Assembly: GCF_002854065.1 (NCBI RefSeq)
Contig: NZ_CP024147.1
Direction: 5' to 3' (one strand)
DNA length: 64,000 nucleotides
Origin: Escherichia coli
GTDB lineage: Bacteria; Pseudomonadota; Gammaproteobacteria; Enterobacterales; Enterobacteriaceae
Shown here: positions 3,415-27,877 of the stretch, in pieces
Layout: each line of letters begins with the position of its first letter
How positions within the stretch are numbered: position 1 is the first letter of the stretch
The notes under the pieces: generated by a model
What the model was told of the DNA's origin: nothing
Seen by the model: only the letters and a program-made list of their open reading frames with translations
Databases searched by the model: none
Translations under genes and position numbers: made by a program

Positions 3415-5097
3415 TTATTTCGCTTCGCTTAGTGCTTTCTTGATATTGTTAAACTTCTCCTGATTTACCTCGCTAAGCGGTGGCTGGCTGCTGTCGATAA
3501 ACTCTCTTACCACGCCTTGCATCTCTTTAACGACCTGCGGATTGGCGGCGGCAAGGTTATCTTTTTGCTGTAGATCCGTCAGTTTGTAGAGACCTAACTG
3601 ATTGTTTTCTACTGTATAGACAAGCGAATAATCGTTATTTCTCACCGTATAAGAGAATTGGCTTAAGTCCTCAGTGTTGGGGTTATGCGGGTAATCGTCT
3701 GACTGATGACGGACAAATTTGTGGTAATTATCCCAGAATGGAATATTTTCCTCATCAAACCAGTGAGAATAAGAGGTTATCCAGGTCAGATTTTTATGTG
3801 GCTCGCCTTGTTTCTTATCTTGCAACCAGGGCAGCAAGGAAACGCCATCCAGCTTAAGGTCTTTTGGAATGCTGATATCGGCTGCATCAAGAGCTGTCGG
3901 GTAGAAATCCATTGCGGAAATCAGCTTGTCATAATTACCGGGTTGAAGTTTTCCTTTCCACCACATAAACATTGGGGTGTGAGTACCGCCAGGATAGGTC
4001 TGACTCTTATAGCCTTTTTGCGCCCCGTTCAGCGGCAGAGGGCCATCGATAACCGCACCATTATCGGAGGTAAAGAGAATAATTGTATTGTCATACTGTC
4101 CGTTTTTCTTCAGTTGTTCGAGAATGCGTTTTACACCCTGATCAACAGAATAAACGGAAGCGTAGTAGTTATCTGCTGTTTGACTACCGGTATTAAATTG
4201 CTTCTGATATTGCTCCGGTGCAGGATTATCATTTGGCAGGTGCGGAGCATTATAAGCCAGGTAAAGCATAAAAGGCTGGTCAAGTGTTTTGGCACGATCA
4301 ACAACGCCAATTGCCTCATCGGTTAACTGATCGCTGATATAACCTTTTGCGGGGACACGTTCACGATTTTTGAACAGTGAAGGGGAGTTGTAATATGCCG
4401 TTCCTGCAGCGTGGAATCCCATAAAGTAATCAAAGCCACGGTTTTGCGGTTGCCATTCTTCCGCAGAAAATGTGGTGAAGTTGTCATGATAGTCACGTGT
4501 TTGTTTATCTTCCGGTACCGGCACATTACTGATTTTTGACAAGTGCCATTTACCTACTGCTGCAGTGTAATAACCATGATTCTGGAATAATTCAGGCAAG
4601 AAAGTTTCTGTGAGCGGAATACCATCCTGAGCATCGGTATTGGAATAGACACCAAAGCGGGCGGGAGCTCGACCGGTCATTATTGCGGCGCGGGAGGGGC
4701 CGGAAACACCGTGTGCCACATAGCCGTTAGTAAAACGTACGCCTTCATCCATTAATGAAAGGAGCGTCGGCGTTGATTTTTGTGCAGCTTCAATGGCTTT
4801 ATCTATCCCTATTTTGTAGGTATCGACAACTTCACGATTTTCCATTGTTTTTGGGTCAAAAGATCCCTTATCAAAAGGAAGTTGTCCATAACCAAGATCA
4901 TCCATGGTCAGTACGATAATATTTGGCTTTCCTTTGGTACTGTATTCAGTCGGCGTAAAGTCTGAGAAAGCAACGTTTGTTTTGGTTGCTTTCAGCTTTA
5001 CATCATCTGCCGCATGAGCAGCAAATGCAGCCATACCAGATGCCAGTATCAAAGATATCGAGGTACTTACGACACTTTTCTTTAATGCAGACTTCAT
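3415..5097 (-). CDS. ydeN: Ser-type sulfatase (secreted)
   Basis: ORF 3415..5130; signal peptide after MKSALKK; sulfatase active-site motif SGPSR (S-x-P-x-R); start chosen at Met giving 560 aa. Confidence 0.85.
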   Translation of the reverse strand: MKSALKKSVVSTSISLILASGMAAFAAHAADDVKLKATKTNVAFSDFTPTEYSTKGKPNIIVLTMDDLGYGQLPFDKGSFDPKTMENREVVDTYKIGIDKAIEAAQKSTPTLLSLMDEGVRFTNGYVAHGVSGPSRAAIMTGRAPARFGVYSNTDAQDGIPLTETFLPELFQNHGYYTAAVGKWHLSKISNVPVPEDKQTRDYHDNFTTFSAEEWQPQNRGFDYFMGFHAAGTAYYNSPSLFKNRERVPAKGYISDQLTDEAIGVVDRAKTLDQPFMLYLAYNAPHLPNDNPAPEQYQKQFNTGSQTADNYYASVYSVDQGVKRILEQLKKNGQYDNTIILFTSDNGAVIDGPLPLNGAQKGYKSQTYPGGTHTPMFMWWKGKLQPGNYDKLISAMDFYPTALDAADISIPKDLKLDGVSLLPWLQDKKQGEPHKNLTWITSYSHWFDEENIPFWDNYHKFVRHQSDDYPHNPNTEDLSQFSYTVRNNDYSLVYTVENNQLGLYKLTDLQQKDNLAAANPQVVKEMQGVVREFIDSSQPPLSEVNQEKFNNIKKALSEAK

Positions 5098-21230: not shown

Positions 21231-21839
21231 GACGCCTGCAGCTTGAGTACCTAATCTTAAATAGCCTCCATCGACGTGACCCTTCTGTTTAATATTCAGC
21301 GTCCCCGTTCCGGATTGACCCACATTTAAAGGCCTTGCATTATTTCCGCTATCATACAATCGCCAGGTGCCACCCAAAACATTAACGGTGCCCTCTGAGT
21401 CCTCATTAGCGCCAATGACGCTGGTAGTAATAGTGGTTAAGGAGGCATTACCGCCAGCCAAAATATTAAGCACTCCAGTGCCATACCAGCCAACCAGGTA
21501 GGCATCATAAGCAACATCAGTATCAATATTTGTAATCTGACCATTATCAACTTCAAGACTTGCACCAGACGCTGAACCGCTTAGTGCCAACAAAACACCC
21601 AGCGTCAATCTACGGAATTTCGTTGTCAGTCCAGAGGATTTACGCAAATTAACCATTGATGTTTTACCTACCCTGCGAGTTAATTCCGAGCAGGCCTGAA
21701 ATACCTGTAGGGTGCAATTCCATATCACGCGATAGATTCTATTCATATAAACGCTCCATATACAAACAATACAGCCTCGAAAGAAATGAGTCGTCAGACA
21801 TTAAAAATGAAACTTATTAAATTGTCAGAGGTCTGTATT

Positions 21840-21877
21840 GGGGGAACCGCAGAATTCGGAAAAAATCGTACGCTAAG
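21840..21877. repeat. left terminal inverted repeat GGGGGAACCGCAGAATTCGGAAAAAATCGTACGCTAAG
   Basis: matches the right end in inverted orientation at 35 of 38 positions; whether the first G (21840) belongs to the repeat is ambiguous. Confidence 0.8.
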
Positions 21878-22028
21878 CTAACGGTGTTCTCGTGACAGCT
21901 CTTTGACTAGGCTTTCTAAGGCCATTCTGATAGCCCTGACTTCCTGAAAAGCCATGGCTAAAATTTGTGCGGCTAAAAGGGATAACCGATGGTAAAGTAA
22001 GTTATCCCTGTCGAGATACTGAAAAGCG

Positions 22029-23606
22029 TTATCCTCGTTTTTCCCAAAACTGTTTTGCCAGTTCGCTCAGAGCGCTAGTTAACTGAGCGACAGATTTCGC
22101 ACTTTGCAAATTATTCTGCCCGGTCTGTACATTGGTATCAGCAGCATCGCGTATATTGATAATACTGCGGTTTATGTCTTCACTTACTGCTCCCTGCTGC
22201 TCGACCGCAGTCGCTATTTGCGCGTTCATGTCGGTAATTTCGTTAACGCGTTGGCCAATTCCATCAAGAGCTGTAGCTGCTTCCTCTGCGTGAGCTACAC
22301 TCGTGTGCGCTTGCCGACTACTTTGCTCCATGACTGTAACAGCGGATTGCGCTCGCTCTTGTAGAGCGCTGATCATGCTTTGAATATCCGTTGTCGATTG
22401 CTGTGTGCGAGCAGCAAGACTGCGAACCTCATCGGCGACAACAGCAAAACCACGCCCCTGCTCACCAGCACGCGCGGCCTCAATTGCTGCGTTGAGTGCC
22501 AACAAATTCGTTTGCTCGGCGATCCCTCGTATAACGTCAAGAACTTTTGATATCTCGTTACTTTGACCTTCAAGCTCATGAATAACCTGAGTGGCTTGCC
22601 TAATTTCACCTTCAAGGGCAGTGATTGACTGGCTTGTGTGGGCTACCAGACGCTGGCCAGATGCCGTCTCAGTGTCTGCTCTTCCGGCCGCATCTGCAGC
22701 ATGCTGTGCATTGCTCGCAACCTCTTGAATGCTTGCCACCATTTGGTTTACTGCCGTTGCTATTTGATCTGTCTCTGCCTGCTGCTCAACTGTAAGTACA
22801 TTGCTTGACTCAATATCCTTTAGTAGGCCTCGGGTGTGTTCGCTAAGCCGATTTGATGCATCACCTATGCGACCTACTATGGCGCCTGTTTCAGCTTGCA
22901 TCATTCGTAAAGCAAACTCTATTTGGCCAAACTCATCGGTGCGCCCAGTGTAGAGGGATTGACTTAATGGGTTATTGGAAATATTCCTGGCTCTTTCAAC
23001 CAGTCTTCCAAGAGGAGAGAGAATAGCCAAAACACTAACAGAGCTTAAGCTTCCTGACATTAAAGTGGCTAACAATAAGCTGCTTATTGATGTATCAGTA
23101 AGCATGCCGGCAGCCATTGCGCTTGATATAATACTACCCCATATGAGCAAGAGTATTTTCACGGAAAAGCTAGCAGCCAATTTCGGCCTCGCGGCCTTCC
23201 CGCTTCTCAATTGAGCATATAATTTTTCCGCAGCCAAAACCTGCTCAGGTTCAGGCTTGGTCCTTACAGACTGGTATTCAACAATCGAACCATTCTTAGC
23301 TATTGGCGTTACATAAGCACTTACCCAATAGTGGTCGCCATTTTTACAGCGATTTTTTACTAGCCCCATCCATGAGCGGCCAGATTTTAATGTACTCCAC
23401 ATATGCTCAAATGCAGCAGGCGGCATATCTGGGTGTCTTACGATGTTGTGAGGCTGGCCTAATAGTTCTTCCTCAGTGAAACCACTGATTTTAATGAAGT
23501 CAGGATTAACGTACGTGATATGGCTTTGAGGGGAGGTAGTCGAAAGAATATTGGCATCTTTTGGGAGTTCTAAGTTTCGACCCGTCACTGGTAAATTCTG
23601 GCGCAT
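22029..23606 (-). CDS. Aer-like PAS-domain / methyl-accepting-chemotaxis signalling-domain protein (transposon cargo, orfI)
   Basis: 525-aa ORF; N-terminal PAS block resembling Aer ([37 protein letters not shown]), central hydrophobic segment, C-terminal MCP signalling region [35 protein letters not shown]. Confidence 0.85.
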
Positions 23607-23915
23607 AAGAACCTCAAGGGTTGGCTGTTTTATTTTATTGTTTTCGGCATTAAGCCCAATTTCTTGAGCGTTACGATAAAGCTAGCATGGAAACGATAGG
23701 TGCAAGCAAGTTAAGGGTTGCATCGCGCATGTCAATCTAGGCTATACCCTAACTTGATGTCAGGCAGGGCCGCGCCGCTTCGTCAGAATAGAGTCTGCTT
23801 TCCCATTTTTTGACACATGCCCGCGAAGGTTATAGATTTCAGCCTGACAGAAATGGGCTTTGAGGCACAACGGAACAGAAAGTGCACTTAAGCCGCCTTC
23901 AACCAAGGAGACATC
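23607..23915. promoter_or_regulatory. res (resolution) region with divergent promoters between orfI and tnpR
   Basis: TGTCAGGC...GCCTGACA-type dyads (about 23760..23860) upstream of tnpR, typical placement for Tn21-subgroup res sites; exact subsites not resolved. Confidence 0.5.
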
Positions 23916-24476
23916 GTGCAGGGGCACCGCATCGGCTACGTCCGGGTCAGCAGCTTTGACCAGAACCCGGAACGCCAGCTGGAACAAACCCAGGTGAGCA
24001 AGGTGTTCACCGACAAGGCATCGGGCAAGGACACCCAGCGCCCCCAGCTCGAAGCGCTGCTGAGCTTCGTCCGCGAAGGCGATACAGTGGTGGTGCACAG
24101 CATGGATCGGCTGGCCCGCAACCTCGATGACCTGCGTCGCTTGGTACAGAAGCTGACTCAGCGCGGCGTGCGCATCGAGTTCCTGAAGGAGGGCCTGGTG
24201 TTCACTGGCGAGGACTCGCCGATGGCCAACCTGATGCTGTCGGTGATGGGGGCCTTCGCTGAGTTCGAGCGCGCCCTGATCCGCGAGCGGCAGCGTGAGG
24301 GCATCGCCTTGGCCAAGCAGCGTGGCGCGTACCGGGGCCGCAAGAAAGCCCTGTCCGATGAGCAGGCTGCTACCCTGCGGCAGCGAGCGACGGCCGGCGA
24401 GCCCAAGGCGCAGCTTGCCCGCGAGTTCAACATCAGCCGGGAAACCCTCTACCAGTACCTCCGCACGGACGACTGA
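23916..24476 (+). CDS. tnpR: serine resolvase TnpR
   Basis: 186 aa, GTG start with AAGGAG RBS; catalytic N-terminus IGYVRVSSFDQN and C-terminal HTH. Confidence 0.95.
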   Translation: MQGHRIGYVRVSSFDQNPERQLEQTQVSKVFTDKASGKDTQRPQLEALLSFVREGDTVVVHSMDRLARNLDDLRRLVQKLTQRGVRIEFLKEGLVFTGEDSPMANLMLSVMGAFAEFERALIRERQREGIALAKQRGAYRGRKKALSDEQAATLRQRATAGEPKAQLAREFNISRETLYQYLRTDD

Positions 24477-24479
24477 CAC

Positions 24480-27446
24480 ATGCCGCGTCGCTTGATCCTC
24501 TCGGCCACGGAGCGGGACACCCTGCTTGCGCTGCCGGAAAGCCAGGATGACCTGATCCGCTACTACACCTTCAACGACTCCGACCTGTCGCTGATCCGCC
24601 AGCGACGCGGCGACGCCAACCGCCTCGGCTTCGCCGTGCAGCTCTGCCTGCTGCGCTACCCCGGTTACGCGCTGGGAACCGACAGCGAGCTGCCCGAGCC
24701 GGTCATCCTGTGGGTGGCGAAGCAAGTCCAGGCCGAGCCGGCGAGCTGGGCAAAGTACGGCGAGCGCGACGTGACCCGTCGCGAGCATGCCCAGGAACTG
24801 CGCACCTACCTGCAACTGGCCCCGTTCGGCCTGTCCGACTTCCGCGCCCTGGTGCGCGAGCTAACCGAGCTGGCCCAGCAGACCGACAAAGGCTTGCTGC
24901 TGGCCGGTCAGGCCCTGGAGAGCCTACGGCAGAAACGACGCATCCTGCCGGCGCTGAGCGTGATTGACCGGGCCTGCTCGGAAGCCATTGCGCGAGCCAA
25001 TCGGCGGGTCTACCGCGCCCTGGTCGAACCACTCACGGACTCGCATCGGGCCAAGCTGGACGAGCTGTTGAAGCTCAAGGCCGGCAGCAGCATCACCTGG
25101 TTGACCTGGCTGCGCCAGGCACCGCTGAAACCCAACTCTCGGCACATGCTGGAACACATCGAGCGGCTGAAGACATTTCAGTTGGTGGACTTGCCCGAAG
25201 GCCTGGGCCGGCACATCCACCAGAACCGCCTGCTCAAGCTGGCCCGCGAGGGTGGGCAGATGACGCCCAAAGACCTCGGTAAGTTCGAGCCGCAGCGCCG
25301 CTACGCGACCCTGGCCGCCGTGGTGCTGGAGAGCACCGCGACCGTGATCGATGAGCTGGTCGATCTGCATGACCGCATCCTGGTCAAGCTGTTCAGCGGC
25401 GCGAAGCACAAGCATCAGCAGCAGTTCCAGAAGCAGGGCAAGGCGATCAACGACAAGGTGCGCCTGTACTCCAGGATCGGCCAGGCGCTGCTGGAAGCGA
25501 AGGAAAGCGGCAGCGACCCCTATGCCGCCATCGAGGCGGTGATTCCCTGGGACGAGTTCACCGAGAGCGTCAGCGAGGCCGAGCTGCTGGCCCGGCCGGA
25601 AGGCTTCGACCACCTGCACCTGGTCGGCGAGAACTTCGCCACCCTGCGCCGTTACACGCCGGCCTTGCTGGAGGTGCTGGAACTGCGCGCCGCGCCGGCC
25701 GCGCAAGGCGTGCTGGCAGCCGTGCAGACCCTGCGTGAGATGAACGCCGACAACCTGCGCAAGGTGCCGGCCGATGCACCCACGGCCTTCATCAAGCCGC
25801 GCTGGAAGCCGCTGGTGATCACCCCGGAAGGCCTCGACCGGAAATTCTACGAAATCTGCGCCCTGTCCGAGCTGAAGAACGCCCTGCGCTCCGGCGACAT
25901 CTGGGTCAAGGGCTCGCGGCAGTTCCGCGACTTCGACGACTACCTGCTGCCGGCCGAGAAGTTCGCCGCACTCAAGCGCGAGCAGGCCCTGCCCCTGGCG
26001 ATCAACCCGAACAGCGACCAGTACCTGGAAGAGCGTTTGCAGCTGCTGGACGAGCAGTTGGCCACCGTCACCCGCCTGGCCAAGGACAACGAGCTGCCCG
26101 ATGCCATCCTCACCGAGTCAGGGCTGAAAATCACCCCGCTGGATGCGGCGGTGCCGGATCGGGCGCAGGCGCTGATCGACCAAACCAGCCAGTTACTGCC
26201 GCGCATCAAGATCACCGAACTGCTGATGGACGTGGACGACTGGACGGGCTTCAGCCGCCACTTCACCCACTTGAAGGACGGGGCCGAGGCCAAAGACAGG
26301 ACGTTGCTGCTGTCCGCAATCCTCGGTGATGCGATCAACCTCGGGCTGACCAAGATGGCCGAGTCGAGCCCCGGCCTGACCTACGCCAAGCTGTCCTGGC
26401 TGCAAGCCTGGCACATCCGCGACGAAACCTATTCGGCGGCCTTGGCCGAGCTGGTCAACCACCAGTATCGCCACGCCTTTGCCGCCCACTGGGGCGACGG
26501 CACGACCTCATCCTCCGATGGCCAGTGCTTCCGCGCGGGTGGCCGGGGCGAGAGCACCGGGCACGTCAACCCGAAGTACGGTAGCGAGCCGGGACGGCTG
26601 TTCTATACCCATATCTCCGACCAGTACGCGCCGTTCAGCACCCGCGTGGTGAATGTCGGCGTCCGCGATTCCACCTATGTGCTCGACGGCCTGCTGTACC
26701 ACGAGTCCGACCTGCGGATCGAGGAGCACTACACCGACACGGCCGGCTTCACCGATCACGTCTTTGCCCTGATGCACCTGCTAGGCTTCCGCTTCGCGCC
26801 GCGCATCCGCGACCTCGGCGAAACCAAGCTGTACGTGCCGCAGGGCGTGCAAGCCTACCCGACGTTGCGCCCGCTGATCGGCGGCACCCTGAACATCAAG
26901 CACGTGCGTGCCCACTGGGACGACATCCTGCGCCTGGCCAGCTCGATCAAGCAGGGCACCGTCACCGCCTCGCTGATGCTGCGCAAGCTCGGCAGCTACC
27001 CGCGCCAGAACGGACTGGCCGTGGCCCTGCGCGAGCTGGGCCGGATCGAGCGCACGCTGTTCATCCTGGACTGGCTGCAAAGTGTTGAACTGCGCCGCCG
27101 CGTGCATGCCGGCCTGAACAAAGGTGAGGCGCGCAACTCGCTGGCCAGGGCGGTGTTCTTCAACCGCCTTGGGGAAATCAGGGATCGGAGCTTCGAGCAG
27201 CAGCGCTACCGGGCCAGCGGCCTCAACCTGGTGACGGCGGCTATCGTGCTGTGGAACACGGTGTACCTGGAACGCGCCACCCAGGGGTTGGTCGAGGCCG
27301 GCAAGCCGGTGGACGGCGAGCTGCTGCAATTCCTGTCGCCGCTGGGCTGGGAGCACATCAACCTAACCGGCGATTACGTCTGGCGGCAGAGCCGCAGACT
27401 GGAAGACGGGAAGTTTCGGCCCTTACGGATGCCCGGAAAACCTTAG
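24480..27446 (+). CDS. tnpA: Tn3-family DDE transposase TnpA
   Basis: 988-aa ORF starting 4 bp after the tnpR stop; length and organisation typical of Tn21-subgroup transposases. Confidence 0.95.
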
Positions 27447-27479
27447 CGTACGATTTTTTCCGAATTCTGCGGGCTCCCC
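27442..27479. repeat. right terminal inverted repeat (complement reads GGGGAGCCCGCAGAATTCGGAAAAAATCGTACGCTAAG)
   Basis: inverted copy of the left end; overlaps the last codons of tnpA. Confidence 0.85.
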
Positions 27480-27877
27480 TGTATTGAGTGTTAGTTGGAG
27501 GTGGGAAGGTGTCAATTTGGCTAATTTGCTAATACTTTCGAATTGATAGATTAAAAATTGCATAGTTCTTATTTTATTTAAAAATGAACTATGAGTTATT
27601 GTTGCTTAATAAGAAAACTGTTTCTTTCAATAGGAAAATTATCATCATCATATTTAACAAAGAATGGCACTAATTGCTAAAAATCGAAGTTTATTAAACC
27701 CCTTTTGCATCCATTAATGTCTTTAGGAATATTCGTTATAAAATAAGGGTTATGCTTAATGCTTTAAGAAAAATAGCAATTTCCCCTTGAATATATTACT
27801 GGTGATGGAAGGATGAATCTGCAAGCTGGCATTTAACAAGCCAGTTCTAAAAGAAGGGAAATAAGAATAACTATACT

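Follow-up and report, generated by a model that had tools for sequence, protein, structure and literature searches.

Tn1722 is the 5.6-kb core of the tetracycline-resistance transposon Tn1721 and belongs to the Tn21/Tn501 branch of the Tn3 family. The experimental papers on Tn1721 describe 5-bp target-site duplications (TSDs) alone (PMC8725868; PMC11417375). Longer repeats have been reported for natural insertions. For instance, the Tn1721-blaCTX-M-27 element in phage P1-CTX is flanked by TATGAA, described as a 6-bp TSD (PMC11117986), a 6-bp direct repeat abuts the Tn1721 inverted repeats (IRs) of the Tn1721/Tn21 hybrid in pTZ41_1P_HI2 (PMC7355605), and a recent preprint gives the repeats of the Tn3 family as "5-bp (or sometimes 6-bp)". 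In the mechanism described for Tn1721, TnpA makes a nick at each 3' end of the element and links these ends to staggered phosphodiesters of the target, and the replicated cointegrate is resolved by TnpR at res (PMC8725868). The res site of Tn1721 is attributed to Rogowsky et al. 1985 in bioRxiv 10.1101/2025.11.05.686661. The 6-bp class is known but under-quantified, and the insertion described here is a new instance of a known behaviour.

The sequence analysed, hereafter the window, is a 64,000-nucleotide stretch of an Escherichia coli chromosome (contig NZ_CP024147.1). Judged by its sequence, the 5,640-bp element found at positions 21840-27479 is a complete Tn1722, the minimal transposon and self-sufficient core of Tn1721. 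Its parts follow the order IRL-mcp-res-tnpR-tnpA-IRR, where res is predicted by position (Table 1). The element differs by 2 nt from one chromosomal copy (L004) and by 1 nt from two others (L005 and L006). In RefSeq, the near-identical copies from the same chromosomal neighbourhood of other strains carry the same genes and the family label "TnAs1 family". Gene families, length and near-identical copies all bear out the original prediction of a Tn1721-type element of the Tn3 family, the coordinates and sequences of which were exact.

Table 1. Features of the Tn1722 insertion. Positions refer to the window.
Feature	Position	Strand	Basis
Left target-site duplication copy, TGTATT	21834..21839	.	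Junction read; one copy in empty site
IRL of Tn1722/Tn1721, GGGGGAACCGCAGAATTCGGAAAAAATCGTACGCTAAG, 38 bp	21840..21877	+	Repeat search and direct comparison of arms
mcp (orfI), 525-aa PAS/HAMP methyl-accepting chemotaxis protein, Tn1722 passenger gene	22029..23606	-	ORF
mcp-tnpR intergenic region, 309 bp, putative res location	23607..23915	.	Position alone
tnpR, 186-aa serine resolvase	23916..24476	+	ORF and exact protein match
tnpA, 988-aa Tn3-family DDE transposase, R683C relative to WP_001138014.1	24480..27446	+	ORF; stop codon within IRR
IRR of Tn1722, read inward GGGGAGCCCGCAGAATTCGGAAAAAATCGTACGCTAAG; read along the strand CTTAGCGTACGATTTTTTCCGAATTCTGCGGGCTCCCC	27442..27479	-	Repeat search and arm comparison
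Right target-site duplication copy, TGTATT	27480..27485	.	Junction read and empty site

The MCP and TnpR proteins match proteins on record exactly. The former features the Pfam domains PAS_9, HAMP and MCPsignal, and its counterpart in the near-identical copies is WP_001323889.1, annotated in RefSeq as a methyl-accepting chemotaxis protein; the latter features the Resolvase and HTH_7 domains, and its RefSeq counterpart is WP_001161490.1. TnpA is one residue off WP_001138014.1, a "Tn3-like element TnAs1 family transposase", and the canonical protein contains the DUF4158 and DDE_Tnp_Tn3 domains. The substitution, R683C, falls in codon 683 of tnpA (nt 4687 of the element), within the motif SSSDGQ[R]F and three residues past the presumed first catalytic Asp. 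The distantly related TnpA of Tn4430 has also kept this Arg (DGMRL), and the exact variant was not found by an exact-protein look-up in the protein-position index. R683C may impair the transposase. Other insertions flanked by 6-bp repeats carry the canonical TnpA, and therefore the substitution is not the cause of the 6-bp duplication.

An inverted-repeat search identified the two 38-nt arms of the element, which are 92% complementary and separated by 5,564 nt. Direct comparison showed that the arms match at 35 of 38 positions and differ at positions 5, 6 and 7 (GGGG-GAA-CCG versus GGGG-AGC-CCG). The ends had been predicted to be non-identical, differing at three positions or by one indel, and the three mismatches confirm this. 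In every copy retrieved, the end next to mcp reads GGGGGAAC... and the one next to tnpA reads GGGGAGCC..., whatever base flanks the element. The suggested comparison with published IRs was carried out: GGGGAGCCC..., identical to the IRR of the window, is printed as a Tn1721 IR (PMC7864471), and GGGGGAACC..., corresponding to the IRL type, is printed as the IR of Tn6433, a related transposon (PMC13085002). Inequality of the IRs is thus canonical for Tn1721 and represents no anomaly.

Across all the surveyed copies, IRL has the same outermost 8 nt and the same inner core of 30 nt, and the differences between IRR and IRL are confined to the outermost few bases. Among 86 loci of other genera sharing the inner 30 nt, the commonest outer octamers are GGGGAGCC (33 loci) and GGGGGAAC (15 loci). 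A scan with the 30-nt core also revealed that GGGGAGCC is present at both ends of some elements of other genera.

The left junction reads GAGGTC-TGTATT-GGGGGAACCGCAGAATTCGGAAAAAATCGTACGCTAAG and the right junction reads CTTAGCGTACGATTTTTTCCGAATTCTGCGGGCTCCCC-TGTATT-GAGTG, so that TGTATT abuts both ends of the element. We reconstructed the uninterrupted site as a 1,200-bp sequence, from which the element and one TGTATT had been deleted, and compared it with 5,426 complete E. coli genomes. The query aligned in 4,231 genomes, and at least 80% of it was covered at one place in 3,996. Each of the best 30 matches listed consists of one aligned piece with no gap; the best match, which is 99.9% identical, lies in the spacer that separates an ECSE_1600-family autotransporter gene from lsrK. 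At all three loci read, the uninterrupted site contains one TGTATT, as in GAGGTCTGTATTGAGTG (GAGGTC TGTATT GAGTG), and both flanks of the window insertion are collinear with the empty site. Because the empty site carries a single TGTATT, the occupied site gained 5,640 + 6 bp. These data leave hardly any room for the notion that the flanking identity is a pre-existing chromosomal repeat, or that it arose by recombination between differently located copies. We found no evidence supporting a pre-existing repeat, and the single TGTATT at 3/3 empty loci, the presence of the reconstructed site in 3,996 genomes, including the 99.9%-identical relative, and the collinearity of the flanks all argue against both versions. 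An empty site pointing to a normal 5-bp duplication had been named as evidence against the original prediction; the comparison revealed a real 6-bp duplication instead.

The match between the two flanks extends to a seventh base, G. On the right this G belongs to the target, and on the left it already forms the start of IRL. Since the target base following TGTATT is G, the junction alone fits either a 6-bp duplication next to an IRL with five Gs or a 7-bp duplication, TGTATTG, next to a 37-bp IRL with four Gs, starting GGGGAACC one base further in. In 8 of the first 11 six-bp events the target does continue with G, as the second arrangement might predict, but the enrichment relative to 5-bp events is not significant (7/19, p = 0.13). 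Moreover, IRL begins with GGGGG in every copy, including TATCA-GGGGG, where the target reads TATCAc, and TATGAA-GGGGG, where the target reads TATGAAa. Since GGGGG is kept even beside targets that continue with A, C or T, the fifth G belongs to the element and the duplication measures 6 rather than 7 bp. The survey contains no case explicable by a 7-bp duplication alone, and we regard the 7-bp reading as very improbable. Of the 6-7 bp repeat originally predicted in place of the textbook 5 bp, the excess over 5 bp thus stands, at 6 bp, while the seventh base is lost to IRL. A boundary shifted by one base, also proposed, is at odds with the identical termini of every other copy and with the constant length of the uninterrupted ones, which is exactly 5,640 bp in every copy examined that lacks internal insertions or indels.

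The length of the TSD was surveyed in Tn1721/Tn1722-type insertions from four sources: three further Tn1722 copies from the same chromosomal neighbourhood; loci with the exact TnpA, TnpR, MCP, a 55-aa ORF and the truncated TnpA of Tn1721; five additional E. coli chromosomal matches; and end pairs from a contig scan with the 30-nt IR core. Insertions were de-duplicated by their flanks and counted when both ends were intact and the flanks matched (n = 38); L143 and L145, which have one intact end each, were left out of the count. Among the 38 independent insertions, the duplication is 5 bp long in 25, 6 bp long in 12 and 4 bp long in one. The main set of 31 includes 19 insertions with 5 bp, 11 with 6 bp (11/31, 95% CI 19-55%) and one with 4 bp. 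To these were added L144, with 6 bp, L146 and L147, with 5 bp, and four more elements from other genera, which have the same two end types and all feature 5-bp duplications. The 30-nt core scan yielded 86 loci, mostly lone ends of diverse related elements, and nine end pairs, all with 5-bp duplications. About one-third of natural Tn1721/Tn1722 insertions carry 6-bp duplications. Extended copies of 11,128 bp, in which tetR-tetA-pecM is present together with a third repeat, recur in the survey.

Several of these duplications were verified individually. The 6-bp duplication of L144, TATATA, is periodic and holds against the uninterrupted allele. Two separate assembly accessions, L120 and L131, share the 6-bp event TATCCG, and L106, a P1 phage-plasmid with TATGAA, was recovered independently in the survey and corresponds to the case published as a 6-bp TSD. 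In L005 (NZ_CP182159.1, strain CUPF12; 13007/18647), Tn1722 is inserted in the autotransporter gene and is flanked by the 4-bp duplication TAAT, as comparison with the uninterrupted allele of the window, L006 and L117 confirmed. Duplications of Tn1721/Tn1722 therefore range from 4 to 6 bp.

The counts bear on the suggestion that the window carries a standard 5-bp duplication, TGTAT or GTATT, plus a single-T indel at one junction, arising from an assembly or sequencing error or from a later mutation. If the T at 27480, or one of the two Ts at 21838-21839, is dropped, a perfect 5-bp duplication that fits the empty site does result. When the same insertion was sought with both junctions, it was found in none of the 5,426 complete E. 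coli genomes, where no place covered 80% or more of the junction query. The genome of the window is in neither collection searched, and no second copy is available in them to cross-check the junction. Nevertheless, the junction base lies outside any long homopolymer, and only a homopolymeric 5-bp duplication could be mistaken for one of 6 bp. The 12 six-bp events of the survey come from many laboratories, one being present in two assembly accessions and one being published. As the 6-bp class is frequent, no special error is needed at the window junction, and an indel there seems unlikely. Nor is the repeat a 5-bp subset extended by chance identity, as first supposed: the empty site has a single TGTATT, and a 5-bp reading requires an unexplained extra T at one junction. 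We conclude that the TSD of the window Tn1722 is very probably a genuine 6-bp duplication, TGTATT. The specific insertion site is new here; the element, its ends and 6-bp repeats are already documented.

The element shows several features of its group, namely 38-bp IRs of the form GGGG...TAAG, a DDE_Tnp_Tn3 transposase of ~1,000 residues, the serine resolvase TnpR encoded beside tnpA, the mcp passenger and near-identity to other copies; its duplication is 6 bp where 5 bp is expected. In such elements res comprises three subsites bound by the resolvase and lies upstream of tnpR, and the 309-bp mcp-tnpR intergenic region is its predicted position here. The survey, with 25 insertions at 5 bp, 12 at 6 bp and one at 4 bp, indicates that the 5-bp duplication is a typical but not a defining property of Tn1721/Tn1722-type elements. 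For annotation, this means that direct repeats of 6 bp should count as valid evidence of transposition by these elements. Pipelines demanding exactly 5 bp would misscore about one-third of the intact insertions, either as rearranged or as having no TSD. A different pitfall is found in the Tn1721 copy of L130 (GCA_011492885.1), the 5-bp duplication of which, TATCT, coincides with the first five bases past the internal repeat IRRI (TATCTCATC...). As a result, a 5-bp repeat seems to flank the inner Tn1722 as well, a chance match that is a trap for automated TSD calling.

Target sequences were profiled in the 19 five-bp and 11 six-bp events of the main set (n = 30). The duplicated core is AT-rich in both classes, with an AT fraction of ~0.55-1.0. 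Just outside the core, the AT fraction falls steeply, to 0.26 and 0.37 in 5-bp events, and to 0.18 and 0.18 in 6-bp events. G or C directly flanks the core in 9/11 six-bp events on each side, and in 14/19 and 12/19 five-bp events. This profile matches the target preference that experiments have shown for Tn1721 (PMC8725868). C is weakly enriched 5' of the cut in the 6-bp class (15/22 versus 14/38 in the 5-bp class, sides pooled; Fisher p = 0.03). The window site, C-TGTATT-G, fits the pattern of an AT core set between G/C bases. The idea that every 6-bp duplication is followed by G, drawn from the first three 6-bp events, was dropped, as non-G cases exist and the final counts are 8/11 versus 7/19.

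The profile of the 30 events suggests that the spacing of the cuts follows the length of the AT core between G/C boundaries, a 6-bp core resulting in a 6-bp duplication. In the window, Tn1722 very probably entered the terminus region of the E. coli chromosome by transposition, at the AT-rich spacer that separates the ECSE_1600-family autotransporter gene from lsrK. TnpA would have joined both 3' ends of the element to target phosphodiesters 6 nt apart, rather than the usual 5 nt, and gap repair and replication would then have duplicated TGTATT. By analogy with the Tn1721 precedent, insertion presumably followed the replicative pathway of cointegrate formation and resolution. It is conceivable, and we put this forward tentatively, that the Tn1721/Tn1722 transposase has no fixed 5-nt ruler, and that the target sets the stagger at the G/C-AT boundary, yielding 6-bp duplications in about one-third of cases and occasional 4-bp ones. 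The survey thus provides a modest, testable hint that the strand-transfer complex of the Tn3 family tolerates staggers of 4-6 nt, the choice being made by the target sequence.

A perfect dif site (GGTGCGCATAATGTATATTATGTTAAAT) maps to positions 13639-13666 of the window, on the minus strand, 8.2 kb from the insertion at 21840. Four other independent Tn1722 insertions (L004, L005, L006 and L144) are located in the same autotransporter-lsrK interval in other strains. Most of the E. coli chromosomal copies, which were retrieved regardless of location, lie in lsr, hipA, fdn/narZ, hrpA/aldA, ydd/ync, tehA, ydcV and ppsA, genes that we take to be in the terminus region on the basis of the K-12 map. 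The clustering of natural chromosomal copies in terminus-region genes fits the terminus bias proposed for Tn1721. This bias was proposed from three experimental events only (PMC11417375).

The transposon lies 93 bp upstream of the start codon of the first autotransporter ORF and ~440 bp downstream of the lsrK stop codon. The ECSE_1600-family autotransporter gene (15549-21746, minus strand) appears split into at least three ORFs in the window (15549-20420, 20469-20972 and 21195-21746), and is a single 5.4-kb CDS in strain CUWW06. The window insertion is an ordinary transposon insertion near dif, from which nothing unusual follows.

Among the systems described, Tn1722 itself shares with the window element the 5,640-bp length, the order mcp, tnpR, tnpA, and both 38-bp ends. 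The window copy differs from the usual Tn1722 in the R683C substitution of TnpA, in a site unseen in 5,426 genomes, and in a duplication of 6 bp against the usually quoted 5 bp. The published 6-bp Tn1721-type insertions (PMC11117986; PMC7355605) have the same ends and belong to the same 6-bp class. In contrast to the window copy, an unmodified Tn1722 located in the chromosome, they carry resistance-gene insertions and reside on a phage-plasmid or a plasmid. The structurally characterised TnpA of Tn4430 (PDB 7QD4/7QD8) is a full-length homologue of the window transposase (E = 6.6e-229 against 7QD8), and the two share the motif SSSDG(x)R, which contains the presumed first catalytic Asp. Tn4430, however, belongs to a different subgroup, and its IRs differ from those of Tn1722.
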